A stretch of DNA of 64,000 nucleotides, taken from contig JAFVYC010000022.1 of the NCBI GenBank assembly GCA_017500855.1, positions 13,020 through 77,019 on the forward strand. Direction: 5' to 3'. Each line of letters begins with the position of its first letter. Positions within the stretch are counted from its first letter, which is position 1. A program made the translations under genes and the position numbers. Below are positions 6,799-64,000 of this stretch, one piece after another. Origin of the DNA: Clostridia bacterium. GTDB lineage: Bacteria; Bacillota; Clostridia; Christensenellales; CAG-314. The notes under the pieces were generated by a model. It had not been told where the DNA came from. It worked only from the letters and a program-made list of their open reading frames with translations, and made no database searches.

Positions 6799-8046
6799 CT
6801 AGTTGGATTCCGCAAGTTCCTTTTGGTATGCTTTGAACTCGTCGTCACTGCAATAGATGAAGTGACCCGGTGTGATTTCTTGCATGTAGGGTTTTTGAAC
6901 GGAGTAGTCGTGAGCAGCAATTGGATTGTACACAATACGTTTGCGTTGTTTTTCCGAATGAGGGTCGGGCAATGGAATTGCCGAAAGCAAACTCTTTGTG
7001 TAGGGGTGCAAAGGATGAGCAAACAACTCGTCACTTGTGGTAAGTTCAACAATTTTACCGAAGTACATAACGGCAATTCTGTCGGAGAAGTACTTTACAA
7101 CGGACAAGTCGTGCGCAATGAACAAAATTGTCAATCCCAAACGTTCACGAAGGTCGTTGAGCAAGTTGATTACTTGCGCTTGGATGGAAACGTCCAATGC
7201 GGAAATTGGTTCGTCGGCAATGATCATTTCGGGTTGCAAAACAATTGCTCTTGCAATACCGATACGTTGACGTTGACCGCCGGAGAATTCGTGTGGGTAG
7301 CGACCTGCGTGTTCTGGAACAAGGCCAACCAAGTCCAAAACTTTGTACACTTGTTGATCGATGTAGTGTTTGTCGGTGATACCACGAACAATCAAACCTT
7401 CTGCAATGATTTCACGTACGGTCATACGTGGATTCAAAGAAGCAATTGGGTCTTGGAAGATCATTTGAATTTTGTTCATGATCCTGTCCTTGGAAGCAAT
7501 GCGCATTTCTTCCTTTTTCTTTTGTTCCAAAATTGCTTTTTCTTCTTCAGTTTTTGCAGCGGCAATAAGTCCTTCGTACTTCAATGCAACCTTGCGCATT
7601 TGTTCCGCAGCGTACATTTTGTTGCAGTTTTTGTGGTCGTTCTTTGCTTCCTTGATGGCTTGTTGTTGCTTTGCAACTTTTGCATTCAATTCTGCCTTGA
7701 CTTGTGCAATTTGTTCGGCACTGTCAATTGCGCCACTTGCCTTGATTTCGGCAATTTTTGCTTTGGCTTGCGCCTTGGCATCCTTGATGGCTTGCTTGTA
7801 GGGACGAACACCAGCGCAAATGCGTTGGCCGTCGAAGTACACGGAACCACCTGTGATGTCGTACAAACGAATGATAGAACGGCCTGTTGTTGTTTTTCCG
7901 CAACCGGATTCACCAACCAAACCAAAAACTTCGCCTTTGTACACTTGGAAGTTGACATCGTCTACTGCCTTGTTTACATAGGTTCCTGAACGGAAGTATT
8001 GTTCCAAATGCTTGACTTCAAGCAATACTTTTTTGTCGTTTGCCAT
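6799..8046 (-). CDS. oppF: oligopeptide/dipeptide ABC transporter ATP-binding protein (OppF-type) with a coiled-coil insertion
   Basis: 415 aa. Walker [11 protein letters not shown]-loop [15 protein letters not shown], signature [14 protein letters not shown], Walker [12 protein letters not shown], and an oligopeptide C-terminal region. An insert of about 100 aa rich in Lys/Ala/Glu lies at aa 82-185. Confidence 0.9.
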
Positions 8047-21904: not shown

Positions 21905-22123
21905 CAAAAAAGGTGGATGCCAAAACAACATCCACCTTGCAAAAAGCGCACAAAAAGTGGGATGTTCCTTTACATCGAAAGAACTCCTTGGTTGCAACTG
22001 CAAGTTGGGCATTCGGGCTTGGAAAACTCCTTACCGTAGCGGGACTGCTGATGATTTGCACACCATTCCCCCACAAGGATGTGAACAACCTGCGTTGCAC
22101 ATCGCCTTGCATGATATTTTGCT
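21905..22123 (-). promoter_or_regulatory. cobalamin (B12) riboswitch with terminator expression platform
   Basis: The minus-strand RNA reads GGGGGAAUGGUGUGCAAAUCAUCAGCAGUCCCGCUACGGUAAGGAGUUUUCCAAGCCCGAAUGCCC (core 22027-22072). It matches the conserved core as in the E. coli btuB leader (AGGGAAUCCAGUGCGAAUCUGG..., GCAGCGGUAAGG, CCAAGCCCGAAGACCUGCC). P3 UGGUG/CAUCA carries a 7-nt loop UGCAAAU. Downstream is a 10-bp hairpin AAGGTGGATG/CATCCACCTT (21910-21938) plus a U-run. Confidence 0.78.
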
Positions 22124-53676: not shown

Positions 53677-53753
53677 GGCGGCGTAGCTTAGATGGTTATA
53701 GCGGCCGGTTCATACCCGGCAGGTCGTTGGTTCGAGTCCGACCGCCGCTACCA
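53677..53753 (+). tRNA. tRNA-Met (anticodon CAT); elongator Met versus Ile2-lysidine cannot be resolved by eye
   Basis: Cloverleaf: acceptor GGCGGCG/CGCCGCT, anticodon stem GCCGG/CCGGC with loop TTCATAC, T-arm GTTGG-TTCGAGT-CCGAC, CCA encoded. It lacks the 1:72 mismatch and the 3 G-C anticodon-stem pairs of initiator tRNA. Confidence 0.88.
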
Positions 53754-53758
53754 AATTT

Positions 53759-53833
53759 GGCTCCTTGGTCAAGCGGTCAAGACATCGCCCTTTCACGGCG
53801 GTAACAGGGGTTCGATTCCCCTAGGAGTCACCA
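53759..53833 (+). tRNA. tRNA-Glu (anticodon TTC)
   Basis: GGCTCCTTGGTCAAGCGGTCAAGACATCGCCCTTTCACGGCGGTAACAGGGGTTCGATTCCCCTAGGAGTCACCA. It is a near-canonical bacterial tRNA-Glu with anticodon loop CTTTCAC. Confidence 0.92.
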
Positions 53834-53837
53834 TTGT

Positions 53838-53913
53838 GGGGAGTTAGCTCAGCTGGGAGAGCATCTGCCTTACAAGCAGAGGGTCACAGGTTCGAGCCCT
53901 GTACTCCCCACCA
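53838..53913 (+). tRNA. tRNA-Val (anticodon TAC)
   Basis: GGGGAGTTAGCTCAGCTGGGAGAGCATCTGCCTTACAAGCAGAGGGTCACAGGTTCGAGCCCTGTACTCCCCACCA. Anticodon loop CTTACAA. Confidence 0.92.
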
Positions 53914-55259: not shown

Positions 55260-55376
55260 GCAACAAACAATCAGCGCAAACAGCAATGCCGAAAAACTAC
55301 AAAAACCCCAACACGTGTGCAAAAAAAAACGCCCAAAGGATTGACCTTTGGGCGTTTTGCCTGTTTTGATGTTACT

Positions 55377-55991
55377 CTAGTCTTTGGGAAGGTTGAAGTG
55401 CCGTTTTGCCTTGCGCATGTACGCCACCAATCTGCCGTCTTGCAATTGTTTTTCCGTCACTTTGGATGTTTCCACAGTTTCCGGAATGATGAGCGTGTAC
55501 TCCGTCATGCCTGCCCTAGCTGTGTAGTAGGTAGTGCAAGTGTGGCCACGCACTTCGTAGCGACATTCGTTGCACACAAAGGTTTCCATGCCGTGTGAAA
55601 TGTAGAATGAACCGGAAGGGAATGGCTTGCCCGTTTGGTAGAACTTGCGTTCCAACTTGCCACCACAAAATTCGCAAACTCTGTAGGGAATGGATTCTTC
55701 CTTTTGTTTGTAGAACTCGGCCCTTTCTTTTTCCATAAATTTGGCGTGATTGTTTTTTGCAATTGCCTTGCCAATGTAAAAAACGGCAATGGCAACAGCC
55801 GTGCAAATGGCAACGTTGATAACGCCAAAAACGTCGTTGTCCTTCGCAACAAGAACTGTTGTGCCCAAAACAACGGCAAGAATGTTCCACACAATCACAG
55901 CAGCAACAATGGCGAGGATTTTTGCATTTCCCTTGAACAGGAATGGTTCTTCAATAAATTCGCCGTTCAAATCCCAATCTCTTTTTGCCAT
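55377..55991 (-). CDS. hypothetical membrane protein with a C-terminal zinc-ribbon-like domain
   Basis: 204 aa with a GGAGGAG SD. Two TM helices are followed by CEFCGG...(x28)...CNECRY. Confidence 0.65.
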   Translation of the reverse strand: MAKRDWDLNGEFIEEPFLFKGNAKILAIVAAVIVWNILAVVLGTTVLVAKDNDVFGVINVAICTAVAIAVFYIGKAIAKNNHAKFMEKERAEFYKQKEESIPYRVCEFCGGKLERKFYQTGKPFPSGSFYISHGMETFVCNECRYEVRGHTCTTYYTARAGMTEYTLIIPETVETSKVTEKQLQDGRLVAYMRKAKRHFNLPKD

Positions 55992-56060
55992 ACGTCTCCT
56001 CCATACGGTTTGATAGTGCCATTATACTTTATTATAGCAAACATGTCAAGCAACCAATAC

Positions 56061-56546
56061 TTAGTCCACGCACAATTGTTGTTGCAAAGAAAGCACCATT
56101 TGCTTGTACTCTTGCATGGTTTCGGCAAGTTTGTTTTGCTTGATGAGGCTGATGCAGTTGCAAATTACTTGGTAGATGCCGTTGTAGTAGTTGGCGCTGT
56201 TGTTGGAACTTTCAATTTTTTGCACAATTTGTGGCGCAGTTGCGTAGTAGCGCTTGATGAGCCACAAGCCTTCCGCTGTTTTTGCCATGTAGTTGTCCCT
56301 GAAGGCACGCAAAGTTTGCAGTTCCATGCAGTCGTCTGCCTTGCCAAGGTGTTTTACGCAAGCGGAAGTGAGGAAGCAACCGTCGCTACCGGAAGATGAA
56401 CTTCCACTATCTTCGTCGCACCAACCGGGGCAACCGTAGCCGTCGTTTGTGCCTTCCACCCATTGTTCGTAGTAGGTGCAGTACCAACCTGCGCCCGTTC
56501 TGTGTTCCACGTTGCCACATTTGCAACAAAGCCAATATGTAGACAT
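56061..56546 (-). CDS. Cys-rich hypothetical protein (paralog of 16960-17430)
   Basis: Start set at the ATG at 56546 (AAGGAGG SD). 161 aa. N-terminal WLCCKCGN...WYCTYY is followed by SDGCFLTSACVKHLGKADDCMELQTLRAFRDNYM and a helical tail collinear with the paralog. Confidence 0.7.
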   Translation of the reverse strand: MSTYWLCCKCGNVEHRTGAGWYCTYYEQWVEGTNDGYGCPGWCDEDSGSSSSGSDGCFLTSACVKHLGKADDCMELQTLRAFRDNYMAKTAEGLWLIKRYYATAPQIVQKIESSNNSANYYNGIYQVICNCISLIKQNKLAETMQEYKQMVLSLQQQLCVD

Positions 56547-56694
56547 AGTTTTTGTCCTCCTTGTGTTCAAAATTGTGTTGCAGTGAAAGTTGCTTTTGTT
56601 GATTTTTTGTCCTTGCAAAACCACTGCAAAACTTGCTTTGCAATGGTTGTTGCACGGCGTTTTTGCCACCACGGGGTGGCAAATTTTGTTGTTG

Positions 56695-59571
56695 CTACTG
56701 CTTCAAAATTGCCCAAATAACGTTGAGCGAATCGTAGAAAATCGTCCATTCCGAAAGGTCGGCAAATGGCTTGATGCAGTTGTGTTGCTTGCAAAGTTCA
56801 CGCTTGGTTTCCTCTTGGCACTCGAAGAACGTCCAACCGTGAGCAAGGTGGAAACGCACCCAGCGTTGGTGTTCCCAAGCGGAAAGTTGCGCAAAAATTT
56901 TGGCATTGTCCAACACGCCTTCGCCATTGGTTTGTTGCATGTACTTGGCGTTGTGCATTGGCGCAAACAACGATGCGCTTCGGTTGGAAGATTTTTCCCA
57001 AATGGAAATTTTTGCGTAGCTACGTTGTGGAAGTTGCGTGTCGTGTTGTTCGAACCACAAACGCATTGTTTCGCCAACAAACTTGAGCGCACCCAAGTTT
57101 TGAAGCCCTTGGAACTTGGTTTTTTGGCTGATTTTTTCCAAATTGGCAAGCACGGTTGCCACTTCTGCCGTGGTGGAAACGTCCCTGTTGCTGATTTTTG
57201 CAAACACGCTTGCCAGCACGTTGATGCAGTCGCCCCAGAATTGGCCAACGGCAAGTTTTTCCTCCTCGGTGGTGACGTCGGCCTTTTTGTACTGTGTGAC
57301 AAGCCAATTGTACATCATTTGCACGTCGTCCCGTTGCATGTAGCACTCGTTGAGCCAATCGGACATGCAACTGTACACGCAGTGATAGTTTTCTTCCACG
57401 CTGTGTTCAACAATTTCGCCGTAGGTGTAGATTTCGTCGTTGTTACCAACCACGATAACCACCATGTTGTCGCTTGTAAGCACGGTGTGGCTTTCGTTCC
57501 AAACACCGTGGCCGTTGATGAGCAAAGCGTTGTTGTGCCTGTTCCAAATGTTTACAACAATGTACTGCTTGCAACCGTGGTAGCGTCCACCACTGTTGTC
57601 GGAACGGCATTGTTTTTCGTTGGAAATGTCTTGAATGATGGCGTTTGCAGTCAGCACGTTTCGGTAGTCGTCGCCTGTTGCAACAACAATAATGTTGGGC
57701 GCATCGGGAACGTCCAACTGCATGCCCAGTTCAAGTTTGTTGCGAATGTCGCCAAGCGCTTCGCCAAATTCGGGGTCGATGTCGTTGCCCATTTCGGCAA
57801 TGTAACAGTTCAAAATGTCCAAAATTTCCAAGCAAAGTTGACGGTTGTGGGTGAACTTTACTTCACGGCCGGTCACGTTGTCTACGTGTGTGAAAAAGTC
57901 GAAATCCGTGCAAGCAACGTTGTTGAAACGGTACACAGGGGTGGGCATTTCGCCGTCGAAGGGGCTTTGTTGCGCCTTGTTGTGCTTGCTTTCCGCCAGC
58001 GCAACCACGTTGGCAAAGAACTTGTGGAAAGCCACCGTGTAGTCCTTGAATTGTTGTTCGGAAATGGTTCGGTTTTGCAATGCGTGTGTCAGCAATTTTT
58101 CAAGCGCCAACGATTGTTTTTCCGTTGCGCCACGCACGCTGTCTTCGTGCGCAAAGCACGGGTGTTCAAATGCAAACAAACCGCCAAGTTGCCTTGCAGA
58201 TGGGTCGAAAACTTCCACAGCAAAGTCTCTTGCAAGTCCCTTGTCGTCCAAAGCGGAAGTTTGAACAAACAGGTCGTTGGTGATGGATTGGCCCGTTGAG
58301 CCAAAACCAAGCGCCCACACAAGAAGCCCTGCGTTGTTGGCAATAAGTTGGTCTTGCAAGCCCATTTGTGCAAGGCGTTGCACCGTTTGCTTGCCGATGG
58401 TTTCCGATTCGTTCCACACGTCCAAAATGATGCGTTTGGAATACTGTTCAACAAGGTAGGCTTCGCAAGCCGCCCAATATTTTTTGTAGCCGGATTTTTC
58501 CAGCGCTTTCTTTTCTTGCTTGGATGCGTACACAAAGTTGCGCAAGCCTTGGTCAACTTGATCTCCGCTTACAAAGGACACAACTTGTTGCGCCTTGGTT
58601 TTGTCGGCAAGTTGCACGGTCACCGTTGCGCTCTTCAACACTTTGGCAAAATCCAACAGCATTGTGCGATTGTGGTAGTCGTAGGCTTGGTAGTTGATTG
58701 TGCGCTTGGTCAACAGCACGTACTCGATGCGCATGCCGTCGTCCTTGAGCAAACGTGCATGGATGTCATCAAAAATGATGTCCATGTTTTCTTCCTCTTG
58801 CGGAATGTGGTTGTCGGCGCCAAATGCAAACACCACAAAACGGCAAGAGTAGTTTTCTCTGTTTTTGTTGTTCAAAAACAACGATTTTGCAATGCTTTTT
58901 GGGTGGCTCTTGTCCTTGACGTACAACCAATACACAAACCCGTGTGCCATTATTTCACGGCAAAGTTCATCCTTGCCATCGAAAGGCTCCAAGTTGGGGC
59001 TGGCAAACACCACCATGTAGTCGTTGGGGCGAGCAACGGATTTTTTGTCCTTTTTGTAGGCTTCCAACTGTTGTTGATAGTGCTTTTTGATGTCCTTGGC
59101 AAGATGCACCGTTTCGTCGGTAACGGCAGTAAGCACGTAGATGTCCCTGTTCTTGTCCCTGCGCAAAAGTTGCATCAAGCCGTAGAATTCGTAGCTTGCC
59201 TTTGCGGAAATTACAAACAGCGTCATTGCGCCTGCGTAGATGGACGAGCCGTAGTACAAACATTGCAACAGGCTGGGAACAATTGTTCCTTCAAACTCCA
59301 TCAGCCCTTCGAAAGTCAACCCACCAATGCTACCGTAGATGGCTTGAATAACGGCAATGAAGCCTTTTTCCAAAGTTTCGCCATCCAACACAACAAGTTG
59401 AACGGCAAATTTGGTTGCAATGCTTGTGAGCAAGGCAACCCCAATAAAGAATGCTTCCACCAAAAATTTGCTGTGCGCAAACTTTCGGCGAATAGTGAAA
59501 TAGAGCCAAACTGATGCCAGAAACAGTCCAACAATGGAAACTATTGCCAGCGCTACTCCCCAAAAAATCAT
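56695..59571 (-). CDS. large membrane protein: N-terminal multi-TM block, two degenerate Rossmann-like blocks, RyR-like C-terminal domain
   Basis: Start set at the ATG at 59571 (GGAGGA SD). 958 aa. Four hydrophobic helices lie in the first ~150 aa, including GSIGGLTFEG between helices. Rossmann-like starts are DIYVLTAVTDETVHLAKDI and NIIVVATGDDYRNVLTANAI. The C-terminus LSAWEHQRWVRFHLAHGWTF...KQHNCIKPFADLSEWTIFYDSLNV fits the H..W..GW...K.H.C..P...L...D pattern of bacterial RyR-domain proteins. Confidence 0.72.
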   Translation of the reverse strand: MIFWGVALAIVSIVGLFLASVWLYFTIRRKFAHSKFLVEAFFIGVALLTSIATKFAVQLVVLDGETLEKGFIAVIQAIYGSIGGLTFEGLMEFEGTIVPSLLQCLYYGSSIYAGAMTLFVISAKASYEFYGLMQLLRRDKNRDIYVLTAVTDETVHLAKDIKKHYQQQLEAYKKDKKSVARPNDYMVVFASPNLEPFDGKDELCREIMAHGFVYWLYVKDKSHPKSIAKSLFLNNKNRENYSCRFVVFAFGADNHIPQEEENMDIIFDDIHARLLKDDGMRIEYVLLTKRTINYQAYDYHNRTMLLDFAKVLKSATVTVQLADKTKAQQVVSFVSGDQVDQGLRNFVYASKQEKKALEKSGYKKYWAACEAYLVEQYSKRIILDVWNESETIGKQTVQRLAQMGLQDQLIANNAGLLVWALGFGSTGQSITNDLFVQTSALDDKGLARDFAVEVFDPSARQLGGLFAFEHPCFAHEDSVRGATEKQSLALEKLLTHALQNRTISEQQFKDYTVAFHKFFANVVALAESKHNKAQQSPFDGEMPTPVYRFNNVACTDFDFFTHVDNVTGREVKFTHNRQLCLEILDILNCYIAEMGNDIDPEFGEALGDIRNKLELGMQLDVPDAPNIIVVATGDDYRNVLTANAIIQDISNEKQCRSDNSGGRYHGCKQYIVVNIWNRHNNALLINGHGVWNESHTVLTSDNMVVIVVGNNDEIYTYGEIVEHSVEENYHCVYSCMSDWLNECYMQRDDVQMMYNWLVTQYKKADVTTEEEKLAVGQFWGDCINVLASVFAKISNRDVSTTAEVATVLANLEKISQKTKFQGLQNLGALKFVGETMRLWFEQHDTQLPQRSYAKISIWEKSSNRSASLFAPMHNAKYMQQTNGEGVLDNAKIFAQLSAWEHQRWVRFHLAHGWTFFECQEETKRELCKQHNCIKPFADLSEWTIFYDSLNVIWAILKQ

Positions 59572-59632
59572 AGAAATCCTCCAATTCTTGGTTTTGTCCA
59601 CAAAGGAAGCACACACTCCCTTTGGTTAGTAA

Positions 59633-62161
59633 TTACAGAACAAACAGCAACAGCACAACTTGCGATACAATGCAAAGTGAAGATGTTGCAATTTCTTTTT
59701 TGCAGTCGCCTTCCTTGGTGGCAAGCACAATTGTGACAATTGCCGAAGCAACCGTTGCCAAAAGCAACGGAAGCACAACAAAGCCCGTTGCCTTGCACGC
59801 AAAGTACAACAAGTAGGCAACAACGGCAAGTGCAAGTTGTGGCGCGTGCGCCAGTTTTGCCGAAACTGTGTCAAAATCCTCGGCGGAAATCCACAACCAA
59901 CCAATTGTTGCAAAAACAAGCACGCCAAGCACGCAAGCCAAAACCCAGTTGGCAAGTTCGAAGGAAGCAAACAAAAGCAACACAACTGCCCCAACGTGCG
60001 CAACAAACGCAACGCAGTTGGAAACAATTGCAAGCACGGCAAATTCGTGCGAATCTTGGTTGAGGTACACCACGGCAACGACAAAACACTTGACAATTGC
60101 CACGGCAATCAAAGCAAACACCACCAAGTAGTGTTGCCTGAACACCATCAACAAAGCAACGTTGATTGCAGAAATTGCAAACAAAATTGCCGGAATAAGC
60201 GAAGTTCTTTCCTTGTAGGTCAGCCCGTACCTGCCGTTGACAAGCGCCAAAGTCAGCGGTTCAACAACGTTGTGAAGCATCAACGCAAAGAACACGCCGT
60301 ACGCCCATTGCAAAGTTTGCCAACTTGCAACTTGCGCTTGGTTGAGGTAGGTCAAGAAGAACCACGTCACAATGGCAACGACGGTAGTCACAGCAGTTGC
60401 AACGTACCTGCCCATGTACTCGATGGGGTACCTGATGCCGGCAACTGCCCAACTGATGCTGTAGGCAACAACGCCCACAAGAATAACTGCCGAAAATGTG
60501 CTGACATTGCCACCAATTGCCATGGAAAGCGCCATCACAACCATGGCAAGCGCCGACAAAACCGTTTGCGCACGGAAGCCGGTTGCATCAAAATCCCACT
60601 CTTCCTTGCAGGTTTGAACAGCCATGATAACTTGTGTTATTTGCCCACCAACCATCACAAGCAATTCGAATGCGTAGTTGGAATCAGCTTGGTGGAACAG
60701 CCCTGCCAACATCACGGCAAATGCCGACATGATGGCGGTGAAAATGTGGAACACGCCAAGTTGCTTGATTTTGTTGACAAAGCCTTGCACCGACAATGCC
60801 ACCCCTGCGGGGAACAACAACAGCGTGAGAAGTATTGCAAAAGAGCTGAAGTAGTCAGCAAACGCCATTGCCAATGCGCAGTTGACAACAAGCACAAAGT
60901 TGGCAACAAATGCGCCTGCTATCATCCAATTGACCTTGGCATCGTCCTTTTTGTGGGTGGCAAGCGCTTGGAAAGTTGTGCTTACCAAAGCAAAGCTGAG
61001 CGCCGATGCCGACCAAATGCAAACGTAGCTGATTGGGCTACTTGCAACTGCAAACGTCATGTACAACGTCAGCGCAAGCCAAAGCACAGCCAAAAGCCCT
61101 TGCACGGCGTTTTTCAAACGGAACCCACGCAACAGCTTGGTCAGTTCCCTGATTTTGGTTGCGTCGGCAGTGCTGTCCAACACCACGGAAGTGCTTGTGG
61201 AAGTCATCCACTTTCGTTCCCACGCAGTTGCCTTTTTGTCCGTGCAAACCTTGCGTGTTGCTTCGGCAACGGTCATTGTGCCACGAGTTGTAGTTGTGGT
61301 GGTCGTTGACGGACGGCTTGCCGTTGTGCTTGCCGTTGTTGACGGACGTGTTGTTGAAGCGCTTGTCGTTGTCGTTGGGCGATAAGTCGAAGCACTTGTC
61401 GTTGTTGTTGGACGGTAGGTAGACGTGCCTGCCGTGGAGCTTGGACGGTACGTAGACGTGGTTGTGGAAGTTGTTGGGCGATAAGTCGAAGTGCCCGCAG
61501 TTGAACTGGGCCTGTAGGAAGACGTGCCCGCAGTTGAACTTGGGCGATAGGTTGCGCTTCCGCCTGTGGAGGACACCGTTGTGCGAACGGTTGTGCTACT
61601 GGAAGAAGTGGACGTGCTTGTTGTTCGGCTTGTGGAAGTACTGCGAGAGGTGCTTGTTCCTGCTGTGGAACTTGGTCGATAAGTTGAAGTGCTTGCCGAC
61701 GTGCTACTTGTTGTTTTGGGTTTGGTGGAAGCACCATCGGCAGGGCCTGTTGCAAATGCGTTGGATGCCACGGATTTTGCCGTTGGGCGTTCCACAAGCG
61801 ATTTGCAGTTGTAGAAGGCTTCCTCGCCAATGCGTTCCAACCTTTCGTAGCCCACCACTGCAGTAAGTGCGTAGCAGTTCTTGAAGGCGTGCTTGTTGAT
61901 GTGCGTCACTTCCGAGTGAAGCACAATTTTGCGCAGGAAAATGCGCCCCTCGAAAGCGTGAGCGCCAATAACGGTATACTCGCCGGGAACGTACACAACG
62001 CCACCGCCCGCCATTGGCAAAGCCTTTGCCTTGGCAGGGGTGAGAGTAAGTTTTTCCACAACGGCTTTTTCGATGACGGCATGGGTAGTCCCGCCACAAA
62101 CTTCGCATTCAACAGCAGAATCTTCGTTGTTGCTGTTGCAATCTGCACAAATCCAAGTCAT
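59633..62161 (-). CDS. RanBP2-type zinc finger + BspA-type LRR + Ser/Thr-rich linker + polytopic membrane domain protein
   Basis: 842 aa. Residues 3-22 (WICADCNSNNEDSAVECEVC) fit W-x-C-x2-C-x3-N-x6-C-x2-C exactly. Residues ~55-137 are IGxxAFxxCxxL LRR_5-like repeats. Residues 145-293 are almost entirely S/T/R/P/Y. Residues ~345-842 carry about 12-14 TM helices. Confidence 0.75.
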   Translation of the reverse strand: MTWICADCNSNNEDSAVECEVCGGTTHAVIEKAVVEKLTLTPAKAKALPMAGGGVVYVPGEYTVIGAHAFEGRIFLRKIVLHSEVTHINKHAFKNCYALTAVVGYERLERIGEEAFYNCKSLVERPTAKSVASNAFATGPADGASTKPKTTSSTSASTSTYRPSSTAGTSTSRSTSTSRTTSTSTSSSSTTVRTTVSSTGGSATYRPSSTAGTSSYRPSSTAGTSTYRPTTSTTTSTYRPSSTAGTSTYRPTTTTSASTYRPTTTTSASTTRPSTTASTTASRPSTTTTTTTRGTMTVAEATRKVCTDKKATAWERKWMTSTSTSVVLDSTADATKIRELTKLLRGFRLKNAVQGLLAVLWLALTLYMTFAVASSPISYVCIWSASALSFALVSTTFQALATHKKDDAKVNWMIAGAFVANFVLVVNCALAMAFADYFSSFAILLTLLLFPAGVALSVQGFVNKIKQLGVFHIFTAIMSAFAVMLAGLFHQADSNYAFELLVMVGGQITQVIMAVQTCKEEWDFDATGFRAQTVLSALAMVVMALSMAIGGNVSTFSAVILVGVVAYSISWAVAGIRYPIEYMGRYVATAVTTVVAIVTWFFLTYLNQAQVASWQTLQWAYGVFFALMLHNVVEPLTLALVNGRYGLTYKERTSLIPAILFAISAINVALLMVFRQHYLVVFALIAVAIVKCFVVAVVYLNQDSHEFAVLAIVSNCVAFVAHVGAVVLLLFASFELANWVLACVLGVLVFATIGWLWISAEDFDTVSAKLAHAPQLALAVVAYLLYFACKATGFVVLPLLLATVASAIVTIVLATKEGDCKKEIATSSLCIVSQVVLLLFVL
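61283..61729 (-). repeat. in-frame low-complexity tandem repeats (TYRPSSTAGTS units) inside the 842-aa ORF
   Basis: The protein reads ...STYRPSSTAGTSTSRS...ATYRPSSTAGTSSYRPSSTAGTSTYRPTTSTTTSTYRPSSTAGTSTYRPTTTTSASTYRPTTTTSASTTRPS.... The DNA shows matching imperfect ~33-nt repeats. Confidence 0.85.
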
Positions 62162-62192
62162 AGTTGAAATTCCTTGCTAGTTTTGTTGAGTT

Positions 62193-63101
62193 CTAGTTGT
62201 ACAGCCTGTCGCATTCCTCGGCAAGCGAACCAATGCTTGACGCATTGCTACCACGCCCCAAGGCACGGAAACTCCAACCTGCGCCAACACGTTCGGCAAT
62301 GCCAATGATAAGTGCCGTGTTGCTACGCAAGTTTGCTTCCACCTTGTACTGAATGAGTGGTTTGCGAGTTGTTGGGTCGTACAACTTGATGTACATGTTC
62401 TTGACGTTGCCAAGTGTTTGGTGGCGTTCGGTGCATTTGTAGATGTTTAGCACAAACACCAACTTGTTCCTGTCCTGTGGCACTTTGTCAAGTTTGACGG
62501 AAATGTTTTCGTCGTCGGCTTGGGCAACGCCTTCGCCTGTGAGATTGTCGCCGTGGTGAACAACGCAACCGGTGCTGTGAACTTTTGCACCGTAGTAGAT
62601 TGTTTCCCATCCAGTTGGGCCCATCACAACAACCGACGAGTCAACGTCCATGTTGACACTGCCAACTGCAGGGTCCCAGCCAACGCCAACTTCTATTGCA
62701 AAAAGTGGCTTGCCACGACTTGTTATTTTTACGGTTTGCCCTTGGGACAGCGTGATTACGTCACCTTCTCGGTGGTTGCCATCCACAACGGCATCGGAGT
62801 AGTCAATTTTGAGTTGATTGCAGTAGATGCATTGAAAGTTGTACTTGGAAACGCCTTGGCAACTGCGTGCTGTGCAAGCGCATCCGCCCACCTTTCGGCT
62901 ACGGCAAACTTTGCAAGGCACAAGCGTTGTGTGCGTTTCGAAGGACGGTTGGGAAATTTCCGAAGTGATGACACGTGCTTCGTCGGTGGAAAGCCCAATC
63001 ATGTTGACAACTTTCCAACTTGCGCCGATTTTTTTCACTTCAAGACCGTAGTACTTGCCTGTGCGGTCGCATCTGGCTTTGATAAACTTGGTTTCCGCCA
63101 T
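62193..63101 (-). CDS. TerD-domain protein with an N-terminal Cys-rich extension
   Basis: 302 aa. Residues ~110-300 form a TerD domain (GVGWDPAV...VDSSVVVM...HHGDNLTGEGVAQADDENISVKLDKVP...LVFVLNIY...WSFRALG) with the Ca-binding GDNxTGEG..DDE motif. Residues 1-105 carry Cys at 11, 63, 66, 74, 76, 81, 91 and 94. Confidence 0.85.
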   Translation of the reverse strand: MAETKFIKARCDRTGKYYGLEVKKIGASWKVVNMIGLSTDEARVITSEISQPSFETHTTLVPCKVCRSRKVGGCACTARSCQGVSKYNFQCIYCNQLKIDYSDAVVDGNHREGDVITLSQGQTVKITSRGKPLFAIEVGVGWDPAVGSVNMDVDSSVVVMGPTGWETIYYGAKVHSTGCVVHHGDNLTGEGVAQADDENISVKLDKVPQDRNKLVFVLNIYKCTERHQTLGNVKNMYIKLYDPTTRKPLIQYKVEANLRSNTALIIGIAERVGAGWSFRALGRGSNASSIGSLAEECDRLYN

Positions 63102-63103
63102 GG

Positions 63104-64000
63104 TTATACCTCCAAATATTCTGCATCCACGCCTTGCGACAAAAACAGATGTTTTTTGTCGGCAATTTGTTTTTTGGCAATGGCTTTGATGTCAATTTCG
63201 CCATTGCAAGTCCAAAACGGACGCTTTGTCCACAGTCTTGTGCTTGCCATGTCCCTGTCGGAAAGTCCGTAGTAGGTGTCGGAAGTGCGACCTGTGGAAA
63301 AACTGTCCCAAGTGACGTCAACGTGGTAGTAGTCCACACCGTTGAAGGAAACAAGGTTCCAAGCGTGGTACTCCTCCGAACGCTTGATTTTGCCACACAC
63401 CACTTGGCAGTCGATGCCTTGTGTGTCCAACAAACGCTTGTAGGCTTCGGCAAAACCTTGGCACACGCACTTGTGTTGGATGATGGCGCCGTAGGCACTT
63501 TGGCGATAGCTCATTTCCAGCGAATTGAGTTCTTCCCTTGTGTCGTACTCTACCGTTTTGGCAAGGTAGTTGTGCGCAACGTAGGCTTTGACGGCGTCGT
63601 TCATTGATGGGCAAAACAGTTTGTGGGAAAGTTTGGTAATTTCCTGTTGCAACTCCTTTTCCATCATGTTGAGAAGCACCTTACCAATGCGATAGGTGCA
63701 GTTGAGTTGCATACATTGCAAATTTAGCGCTTCAATGCCTGTGACCTTGCCTTCCATGTTTTGCAAGTTGGCGTAGAAGCCGTGGTAGATCATGCTGAAA
63801 TCTGCTTGGATTTGGTAGAGACTGATGTCTGCCGTGGTCACCACAAACAACCTTGGTTTGCCTGCGGAAACGCACTTGTGCAATGCTTCCTCCGCTTCCG
63901 TTGCGCTGTCCACCACCACGATTTGGTCAAGTGGAACGTCCTTGTTGGCGTAGGTCACGTGCAGTTGGCAAGCAAACAAACTGCTTCGAGCGCTGTAGCC
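63104..64000 (-). CDS. transglutaminase-like cysteine protease-fold protein, 3' part (the reading frame stays open to the window edge)
   Basis: Cys-His-Asp core: KCVCQGFAEAYKRLLDTQGIDCQVVCGKI...EYHAWNLVSFNGVDYYHVDVTWD. No in-frame stop lies between 63979 and 64000, so the true start is probably off-window. The stop sits 2 nt before the TerD gene start. Confidence 0.75.
   Translation of the reverse strand, partial: GYSARSSLFACQLHVTYANKDVPLDQIVVVDSATEAEEALHKCVSAGKPRLFVVTTADISLYQIQADFSMIYHGFYANLQNMEGKVTGIEALNLQCMQLNCTYRIGKVLLNMMEKELQQEITKLSHKLFCPSMNDAVKAYVAHNYLAKTVEYDTREELNSLEMSYRQSAYGAIIQHKCVCQGFAEAYKRLLDTQGIDCQVVCGKIKRSEEYHAWNLVSFNGVDYYHVDVTWDSFSTGRTSDTYYGLSDRDMASTRLWTKRPFWTCNGEIDIKAIAKKQIADKKHLFLSQGVDAEYLEV

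Follow-up and report, generated by a model that had tools for sequence, protein, structure and literature searches.

The closest described relative of the locus analysed here is the TerY-P triad, in which a von Willebrand factor A (vWA) protein, a PP2C phosphatase and a serine/threonine kinase form a predicted phosphorylation switch linked to Ter systems (PMC10542128). The triad was predicted by Anantharaman, Iyer and Aravind in 2012 and shown by Gao et al. in 2020 to be a stand-alone anti-phage system, as relayed in PMC10542128 and PMC7699616; the former also describes the C-terminus of its kinase, a zinc ribbon in the Anantharaman type and an OB fold in the Gao type. A second point of reference is the ryanodine receptor (RyR) domain. 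RyDEP, an RyR-domain protein of phage, both binds and cleaves 2'/3' cyclic ADP-ribose (2'/3'cADPR), its homologues sequester cADPR, and its ligand contacts H75, W78, H100 and D117 are conserved across PF02026 (2026 preprint, PMC13232231). Here we analyse a row of minus-strand genes at the end of a 64,000-nt stretch of Clostridia bacterium contig JAFVYC010000022.1 (the window), compared with public contigs and related loci that carry labels such as L001. An earlier note on this DNA had taken five of the genes, numbered i to v, for a unit with no described counterpart.

On balance, we consider it probable that genes i to iii are the distal half of a conserved TerY-P/TerD cassette, that gene iv is an accessory from a separate family, and that gene v and a further gene, vi, lie outside it. 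The cassette is an elaborated TerY-P triad coupled to TerD, a six-part, cytoplasmic and membrane-tethered system of gut and rumen Clostridia; the nearest loci come from rumen and gut metagenome-assembled genomes (MAGs).

The operon and its upstream half

The five genes first noted are these:

63104..64000, minus strand: gene i, predicted transglutaminase (TGase)-like thiol peptidase, last 298 of its 346 codons
62193..63101, minus strand: gene ii, Zn-module-TerD fusion, 302 aa (Pfam TerD, 139 bits)
59633..62161, minus strand: gene iii, polytopic membrane protein with a zinc finger (ZnF), leucine-rich repeats (LRR_5, 43.9 bits) and a Ser/Thr tract, 842 aa
56695..59571, minus strand: gene iv, transmembrane (TM) helices, Rossmann-like domains and a C-terminal RyR domain, 958 aa from its ATG
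56061..56546, minus strand: gene v, Cys-rich protein with a CFI-box (NCBIfam CFI_box_CTERM), 161 aa from its ATG

Independent gene calls on public contigs gave product lengths of 346, 302, 842, 958 and 161 aa for genes i to v, and the five co-directional open reading frames (ORFs) were reproduced at the same coordinates, with gaps of 2, 31, 61 and 148 nt. Gene i does run off the window, as had been noted, its frame being free of stops up to base 64000; its start lies 144 nt past the window end and the complete gene stands on L001 at 6820-7860. The placement of the Shine-Dalgarno sequence of gene ii inside the end of gene i was likewise reproduced, with GGAGG before the TerD ATG sitting within the last codons of the TGase-like gene.

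Contigs L001 to L006, found through the exact TerD protein, are identical to the window and reach further upstream. The operon starts about 4.2 kb past the window end, on contigs that carry these genes (L001, L002; also L011), and runs in the order vWA (222 aa), PP2C-like phosphatase (578 aa), Ser/Thr kinase (501 aa), TGase-like and Zn-module-TerD. From the phosphatase gene through TerD the layout is shown to be operon-like: successive genes overlap by 4 nt and then by 1 nt, and the last pair is 2 nt apart. About 90 nt 5' of the vWA gene there is a promoter-like site (11 of 12 matches), and a terminator stands behind the deaminase gene that precedes it. Two features of this upstream half are referred to below:

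L001 2772-3440: stand-alone TerY-like vWA protein (VWA_4, 43 bits; VWA_2, E = 1.6e-4)
L001 6215-6820: kinase C-terminus, residues ~300-501, two ~60-aa repeats between Pro/Ala-rich linkers

The metal ion-dependent adhesion site of the vWA protein reads DxTxS and is conserved in part only. The 578-aa protein matches Pfam PP2C_2 at E = 0.003, under the gathering threshold, and NCBIfam Stp1_PP2C at E = 9.4e-8; the profile of its seven-sequence family matches PP2C phosphatases of the PDB (E = 3e-4), with ADGLGG and GDSRxY..L.QITDDH aligning, and the conserved residues (D34/G35/G37, G207/D208/R210, D263/G264, D309/D310) include the metal-binding Asp. This protein also carries a 280-aa extension. The kinase scores 82 bits against Pkinase and has the motifs HSDLKRTN, DFD and SPE, and its C-terminal 200 residues hold no Cys pairs and match no Pfam family. 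PADLOC defence models gave no meaningful match for any of the nine cluster proteins: none for the vWA protein, a weak AbiEii match for the phosphatase, and mad6, MkoA and PD-T4-6 for the kinase, which reflect generic kinase similarity.

Conservation of the cassette

A genome scan with one genome per species yielded 33 species-level loci with a TerD-fusion-related gene, whose six-frame ORFs (stop-to-stop translations) were queried with the nine cluster proteins. We ran phmmer over the 33 loci and jackhmmer over the 28 that have a true Zn-module-TerD fusion. Neighbours of the TerD fusion were found as follows:

vWA: phmmer 22/33, jackhmmer 20/28
PP2C-like: phmmer 20/33, jackhmmer 16/28
Kinase: phmmer 23/33, jackhmmer 20/28
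TGase-like: phmmer 18/33, jackhmmer 18/28
ZnF/LRR-type: phmmer 10/33, jackhmmer 19/28
Genes v and vi: phmmer 0/33, jackhmmer 0/28

Because of these neighbour counts among the 28 species, we assign genes i to iii to a conserved six-part cassette, whose complete set of components occurs in 10 of the 28 loci. At least nine of the 19 ZnF/LRR-type neighbours have a membrane anchor, and the weaker jackhmmer matches among those 19 may be zinc-ribbon-only proteins. Independent gene calls at three distant loci gave the same order, with TerD last or near-last and a variable middle. The five-gene unit of the earlier note does not survive this comparison, as the operon begins upstream with vWA, phosphatase and kinase, gene v is not conserved and gene iv is facultative; what stood, when the recurrence of the neighbourhood was checked, is that genes i to iii are recurrent neighbours and that an RyR protein recurs, whereas gene v never does.

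The Zn-module-TerD fusion is the signature gene of the cassette. Its family comprises 262 homologous clusters, is Clostridial and shows full-length homology at 52-62% identity. Tandem TerD genes were seen only in unrelated loci (L053-L099). In the viral contigs scanned there were generic TerD domains only, none with the N-module, and no homologue of gene iv; because both the fusion and gene iv were lacking there, the system does not appear to be phage-borne.

The middle of the cassette varies by species and holds toxin/immunity, TIR-TPR, AAA/SMC-type ATPase or peptidase genes. One such gene, encoding a 1212-aa TIR_2 + TPR protein, lies between the TerD cassette and a ClpP-gene iv module in L022 (13080-16718). 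In one Oscillospiraceae form of the cassette (L017 2717-8908; also L018, L019 and L027) nine extra genes stand between the kinase and TGase-like genes, those of L017 including a SUKH immunity protein, a Tox-GHH toxin, a TraG/VirD4-like ATPase, a GDSL lipase and an M48 peptidase, among others.

Genes i to iii

The transglutaminase-like Cys-His-Asp core proposed for gene i was borne out by Pfam Transglut_core (33.7 bits, cut-off 23), and the triad Cys228/His260/Asp276 is at least 90% conserved across 19 homologues. The product is, by these predicted features, a cytoplasmic transglutaminase-like thiol peptidase.

Gene ii divides into two parts:

62787..63101, minus strand: Cys-rich N-module, residues 1-105, with a Cys knuckle region after a beta unit of three strands
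62220..62756, minus strand: TerD domain, residues 116-294, with Ca-site motif GDNLTGEG-VAQA-DDE

The AlphaFold2 (AF2) model of gene ii (mean predicted local distance difference test, pLDDT, 82.7) matches solved TerD structures in Foldseek at E = 8e-20, and the domain can be aligned to K. pneumoniae TerD (2kxt) and S. coelicolor 3ibz. The earlier claim of a TerD domain with an intact Ca motif and a multi-Cys N-module held for the fold, the N-module and the GDNLTG...DDE frame, but the acidic 'DG' is replaced: the motif reads GDNLTGEG-VAQA-DDE here as against GDNRTGEG-DG-DDE in K. pneumoniae TerD. Across 31 sequences the invariant Ca-site residues are G184, D185, N186, T188, G189, D196, D197 and E198, and the invariant N-module cysteines are C11, C63, C66, C74, C76, C91 and C94. 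The N-module matches no Pfam family, and Foldseek finds no PDB fold outside the TerD part. Taking gene ii together with gene i and the two upstream enzymes, the alignments show the predicted catalytic or metal-binding residues to be intact in kinase, phosphatase, TGase-like protein and TerD.

Two parts of gene iii can be placed within its N-terminal half:

62096..62155, minus strand: RanBP2-type zinc ribbon, residues 3-22 (PROSITE pattern)
61277..61741, minus strand: Ser/Thr-rich tract, residues 141-295 (composition, repeats)

The zinc ribbon follows the PROSITE pattern W-x-C-x(2,4)-C-x(3)-N-x(6)-C-x(2)-C exactly, as had been stated, but falls under the Pfam threshold, Zn_ribbon_RanBP (PF00641) being the top match at 17.4 bits and E = 0.0026 against a threshold of 27. 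The BspA-type LRRs pass theirs. The Ser/Thr tract, put at about 150 aa earlier, measures 155 aa and is 65% S+T (58 T, 42 S); it contains seven copies of an 11-aa YRP[ST] repeat, and no tandem repeat was found in it at the DNA level. A crude hydropathy scan gave about 13-15 segments, in agreement with the 12-14 TM helices proposed. The N-terminal 140-250 residues are shared with cassette-linked proteins of 214-745 aa in other species, which retain the W[VI]C..C...N zinc ribbon and the LRR_5 unit, have an S/T/P-rich linker where gene iii has its Ser/Thr tract, and end in a membrane anchor; this architecture is constant while the anchor consists of anything from a single TM helix to many. Two positions are seen for the gene, one after TerD and the other between the genes for the kinase and the TGase-like protein. 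A homology search with the TM part (residues 340-842) gave only the gene itself and an 86% relative. Calls of 547 aa for gene iii on L002 and L003 differ in the choice of start only, the stop-free frame being equally long.

Gene iv and its family

Gene iv belongs to an unnamed family, of which an exhaustive profile search recovered 201 cluster representatives at E <= 1e-30, rising to 372 when the limit was E <= 1e-10; a word-indexed search alone had shown 10 clusters where the exhaustive search raised the number to at least 200. Fusions to M20/M28 peptidase domains are seen in some of its members. An alternative start, GTG at 59616, would give 973 aa. Two segments are of particular interest:

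56698..56898, minus strand: RyR (R12-type) domain, ~residues 892-958 (family profile against PDB)
59302..59325, minus strand: GGLTFEGL motif, residues 83-90, between a short helix and a TM helix

The RyR-like C-terminus, one of the claims made for this gene, is clear at the level of the family profile, which matches PDB RyR domains of B. thetaiotaomicron (3nrt, E = 4e-8) and 6uhi (E = 1e-17); the single protein stays at 15 bits against a gathering score of 27.4. The Pfam score is sub-threshold because the first half of the RyR repeat has diverged, and RyR (PF02026) is matched by 8 of 10 family members, with a best E of 1.6e-4, over the second repeat half only. The C-terminus of the window's gene iv alone aligns to human RyR3 R12 and to the B. 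thetaiotaomicron protein. H901, W904, H930 and D947 are invariant in the family, and the corresponding H/W/H/D profile positions 848, 851, 873 and 890 have the spacing of RyDEP (+3, +25, +42). We infer that gene iv keeps the RyDEP ligand residues, the correspondence being drawn through this spacing and other RyR domains rather than a direct alignment to RyDEP. From these residues gene iv is most likely a nucleotide-responsive membrane protein, with an adenine or ADP-ribose type of ligand predicted.

The AF2 model (pLDDT 73.8, predicted template modelling score 0.77) begins with TM helices, continues with several beta-alpha-beta domains and is helical at its C-terminus. Of the two degenerate Rossmann-like blocks proposed, the beta-alpha-beta units and weak Foldseek matches speak in favour, while a TrkA_N hidden Markov model (HMM) match is lacking; similarly, the channel-type or TrkA_N reading of the whole protein has weak structural support (Foldseek E = 0.03) and none in sequence, as no TrkA_N or Ion_trans HMM match was found in 10 family members at E <= 1. 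The top Foldseek match is the Ca-gated K+ channel MthK (6u68_A; E = 0.034, probability 0.91, TM-score 0.28), followed by another K+ channel (probability 0.93) and eIF2B-like Rossmann folds; against solved structures, nothing came out at E <= 1e-3. Homology to MthK was rejected, with an hhalign probability of 0.1% against the MthK sequence (1lnq_A) and no HMM match, which leaves a weak structural lead.

In the GGLTFEGL motif, all positions other than T86 (G83, G84, L85, F87, E88, G89 and L90) are invariant, and T86 itself is conserved to at least 90%; pLDDT in the AF2 monomer model is low over this segment. A likeness to a Cav-type TFEGW pore filter was considered but is not claimed, and the paralogue fam10 is without the motif. 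This fam10 is a distant TM-Rossmann-RyR-like paralogue of gene iv (hhalign 95%, E = 2e-8) and adjoins a gene iv homologue in L010 and L176.

Neighbourhoods of gene iv and stand-alone RyR genes

A full-length gene iv homologue lies at most 10 kb from a Zn-module-TerD gene in 5 of the 33 species (L021, L022, L032, L041, L052). In three others the cassette is accompanied by a small stand-alone RyR protein (~92-109 aa, Pfam 117-127 bits), encoded upstream of vWA:

L042 3774-4052: stand-alone RyR gene, directly upstream of vWA, 264-nt gap
L048 760-1125: stand-alone RyR gene, directly upstream of vWA, 46-nt gap
L043 63-557: stand-alone RyR gene, ~3.4 kb from vWA

With five and three species, the association of gene iv with the cassette is facultative yet recurrent at the level of the RyR domain. 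In most genomes gene iv homologues are located elsewhere, as a rule beside ClpP pairs or a paralogue; in L009, L010, L013 and L178 they follow directly on a tandem pair of short ClpP-like genes and precede an unannotated gene of ~290-300 aa. The ClpP-gene iv modules are located as follows:

L009 8902-13439: ClpP-gene iv module
L010 6736-13642: ClpP-gene iv module
L013 6045-10968: ClpP-gene iv module
L021 13150-20669: ClpP-gene iv module
L178: ClpP-gene iv module

Giant surface-protein genes stand upstream of gene iv homologues in L007 and L012. A pair of minus-strand genes, fam7/fam8 (a TraG/VirD4-like coupling-protein gene and a 300-aa partner), flanks the cassette upstream in L021 and L022, and the same pair directly flanks the ClpP-gene iv module in L009 and L013. 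It looks as if the cassette had been inserted or deleted between fam7/fam8 and ClpP-gene iv.

Genes v and vi and the chromosomal setting

The gene row does not end with gene v, since a sixth co-directional ORF, absent from the list of the earlier note, follows it:

55377..55991, minus strand: gene vi, ORF of 204 aa, two TM helices and a CxxC...CxxC zinc-ribbon-like tail
56021..56049, minus strand: sigma-70-type promoter, TTGACA-17-TATAAT, 12/12 matches, 30 nt upstream of gene vi
55326..55358, both strands: strong bidirectional intrinsic terminator, 14-bp stem, 7 of its pairs GC, and a T run on each strand

The terminator closes the gene row, with a convergent MscL gene on its far side, and gene vi is probably a separate transcription unit. 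Gene v is Cys-rich and 161 aa long as described before, with 12 Cys; its CFI-box-CTERM (NF041770; 52.1 bits, cut-off 40; residues 99-165 of the 203-aa reading) had gone unnoticed, and our literature search on the CFI-box found no papers. Neither gene has a homologue in any of the 33 related loci, and both are lineage-specific small Cys-rich genes outside the system. Genes iv and v are separated by 148 nt, within which a 9-bp GC-rich hairpin (56662-56683) stands; since its T run is on the plus strand only, it does not clearly serve the minus-strand genes as a terminator.

A nine-gene arrangement is kept at the same chromosomal site in a relative, where the gene iv products are 89% identical; in this related MAG the site is flanked by TrkA/dCMP deaminase and MscL. 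The native codon pattern proposed earlier was confirmed, codon usage correlating with the rest of the window at r = 0.77-0.85 against a reference mean of 0.70. Antisense 'shadow' ORFs of up to 569 aa lie opposite real genes (for example 56590-58299, plus strand, and many others); they arise because of codon bias and are not genes. Three consecutive tRNA genes (53677-53910, plus strand) lie beyond MscL, at a distance of 1.5 kb from where the gene row ends, and elsewhere in the window an AdoCbl-II (cobalamin) riboswitch match was found at 21998-22088 on the minus strand (38 bits, Rfam gathering score 36.5).

Interpretation of the cassette

As a working model, the kinase and phosphatase would set the phosphorylation state of a partner, for which the vWA protein and the Ser/Thr tract of gene iii are candidates. 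TerD could provide a sensing input through Ca2+ or a small ligand, and the thiol peptidase an output in the form of target processing or cross-linking, while the LRR protein may place the complex at the membrane or act as a sensor. Gene iv would be a nucleotide-responsive membrane accessory that has repeatedly docked beside the cassette. By analogy, the role is probably conflict/defence-type or envelope-stress signalling; a role in conflict draws support from the TerY-P precedent, from the TIR-TPR gene in L022, and from the SUKH/Tox-GHH genes and TraG-like ATPase in L017.

Several observations weigh against this interpretation. The loci were reached through TerD or gene iv, which introduces ascertainment bias, and when sampling proceeded through gene iv the cassette was nearby in the window's lineage only and not in nine other loci; in L041, moreover, the gene iv homologue is on the opposite strand to the cassette. 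The PP2C assignment is based on sub-threshold scores, neither the zinc ribbon nor the OB fold of TerY-P kinases was found on the kinase C-terminus, and PADLOC, its TerY-P models included, misses the vWA protein and the phosphatase. Phosphorylation, Ca2+ binding and nucleotide binding are predicted activities. No mobile-element genes were found near the locus, on the window's contigs or at the syntenic site of the relative, and with a chromosomal location, synteny in a relative and native codons, housekeeping signalling fits equally well.

This last alternative, in which the system serves envelope stress, metal or Ca2+ homeostasis or development, has no role in defence, and has gene iv as a chance or syntenic neighbour, is in our view unlikely. 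Apart from the codon usage and the shared site between TrkA/dCMP deaminase and MscL, it is favoured by the broad occurrence of the cassette in Clostridia (262 clusters), by the failure of PADLOC to match and by the absence from viral contigs. The arrangement of fam7/fam8 and ClpP-gene iv, which flank the cassette in L021 and L022 and adjoin each other in L009 and L013, further suggests that part of the adjacency between gene iv and the cassette is inherited synteny. Synteny alone is nevertheless hard to reconcile with the data, because RyR domains accompany the cassette repeatedly in two forms whose architectures are unrelated; the highly variable middle of the cassette, with its toxin/immunity, TIR-TPR, AAA/SMC-type ATPase and peptidase genes, also speaks against a plain housekeeping function, as do the experiments in which TerY-P triads were anti-phage (PMC7699616). 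The opposite extreme would make the gene iv family a host membrane effector or regulator, gated by an adenine or ADP-ribose-type nucleotide at its RyR domain, and, with the cassette, an undescribed immune or stress pathway of anaerobic Firmicutes. Its output, either membrane-disrupting or coupled to a protease, would be under the control of TerD and the kinase switch, and bacterial RyR domains would already regulate membrane proteins by ligand, foreshadowing the eukaryotic ryanodine receptors. We regard this as a doubtful proposition. TIR enzymes produce cADPR-type signals, which RyR domains can bind, and the intact ligand residues, the TIR-TPR gene in L022, the three stand-alone RyR genes and the peptidase fusions and neighbours are compatible with it.

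The five ORFs could instead be one novel, self-contained ion- or Ca2+-sensing membrane module, with gene iv as an RCK/RyR channel and TerD as its sensor, much as the earlier note had it. Tight co-directional packing, the largely intact Ca-site motif, the Foldseek ranking of gene iv with MthK (E = 0.034) and another K+ channel on top, and an invariant GGLTFEGL between a short helix and a TM helix all lend themselves to this account. We find it very unlikely, however: the conserved unit runs upstream to kinase, phosphatase and vWA, genes v and vi are conserved nowhere else and the latter has its own promoter, and for gene iv there is no channel HMM match in 10 members, no Foldseek match at E <= 1e-3, an hhalign probability of 0.1% for MthK, and in fam10 a frequent partner without GGLTFEGL. 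That the juxtaposition is fortuitous, without any functional link among the five ORFs, is scarcely credible. Genes v and vi are indeed orphans, a hairpin and a 148-nt gap separate genes iv and v, and gene iv is mostly located elsewhere; yet the TGase-like and TerD genes are adjacent in 18 of 28 species, ZnF-LRR genes occur in the same cassettes at two positions, the junctions overlap or leave a 2-nt gap, and the conservation of genes i to iii already contradicts chance.

If genes i to iii are part of the TerY-P/TerD cassette, as we favour, the locus matters in several ways. TerY-P triads and TerD proteins occur widely and are little understood, and the cassette is a fixed six-part version that could be reconstituted, offering a candidate kinase substrate in the Ser/Thr tract of gene iii and a candidate output in the thiol peptidase. 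The more unusual point is the presence of RyR domains beside it, both stand-alone and as the C-terminus of a membrane family of at least 200 clusters; host RyR membrane proteins with the RyDEP ligand residues would be natural candidate receptors of cADPR signals. If true, this could link Ter-type systems both to immune signalling by nucleotides and to the origin of the RyR repeat.

Comparison with known systems

With MthK, an RCK-gated 2-TM K+ channel (RCK, regulator of K+ conductance), gene iv shares the overall order of a TM block at the N-terminus and then a cytoplasmic domain of Rossmann type. It differs in having neither the TVGYG filter nor a TrkA_N or Ion_trans_2 HMM match, and in the weakness of the structural match (TM-score <= 0.28). 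Compared with the RyR proteins (PF02026; RyDEP, 3nrt), gene iv has one terminal RyR repeat with the same H/W/H/D spacing, and stand-alone RyR proteins occur in cassettes related to this one. Unlike RyDEP, however, gene iv is host-encoded and carries, fused to the repeat, TM helices and Rossmann-like domains that together span about 850 residues; the first half of the repeat has diverged, and ligand binding is predicted for it.

The classical ter operon (terZABCDE) and single-domain TerD proteins (2kxt, 3ibz) share with gene ii the TerD fold and the greater part of its Ca-site motif. In contrast to the former, there is a single TerD here without tandem paralogues, and the Pfam tables of L001 and L011 list no TerB, TerC, TerA/TerZ or TelA within 10 kb; with TerB, TerC and TelA genes absent, the cassette is not a classical ter operon. 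In contrast to the latter, gene ii has a 105-aa Cys-rich N-module unique to this clade, and a variable loop replaces the acidic 'DG' before DDE.

We know of no description of the triad combined with TGase-like, Zn-module-TerD and ZnF-LRR proteins, a statement that does not cover the 2012 Ter paper, nor, to our knowledge, has the recurrent RyR link of the cassette been described. To say that the locus has no described counterpart is nonetheless too strong, because its vWA, phosphatase and kinase, the first three genes of the operon, are a described TerY-P triad in the same order. Its differences from that triad lie in the kinase tail, which has ~60-aa repeats in place of a zinc ribbon or OB fold, in the 280-aa extension of the phosphatase, in the failure of the PADLOC TerY-P models to recognize it, and in the added TGase-like peptidase, Zn-module-TerD and ZnF-LRR membrane protein. 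The cassette therefore qualifies in part as a TerY-P triad, with all three components present, a differing kinase tail and no match to a curated model.

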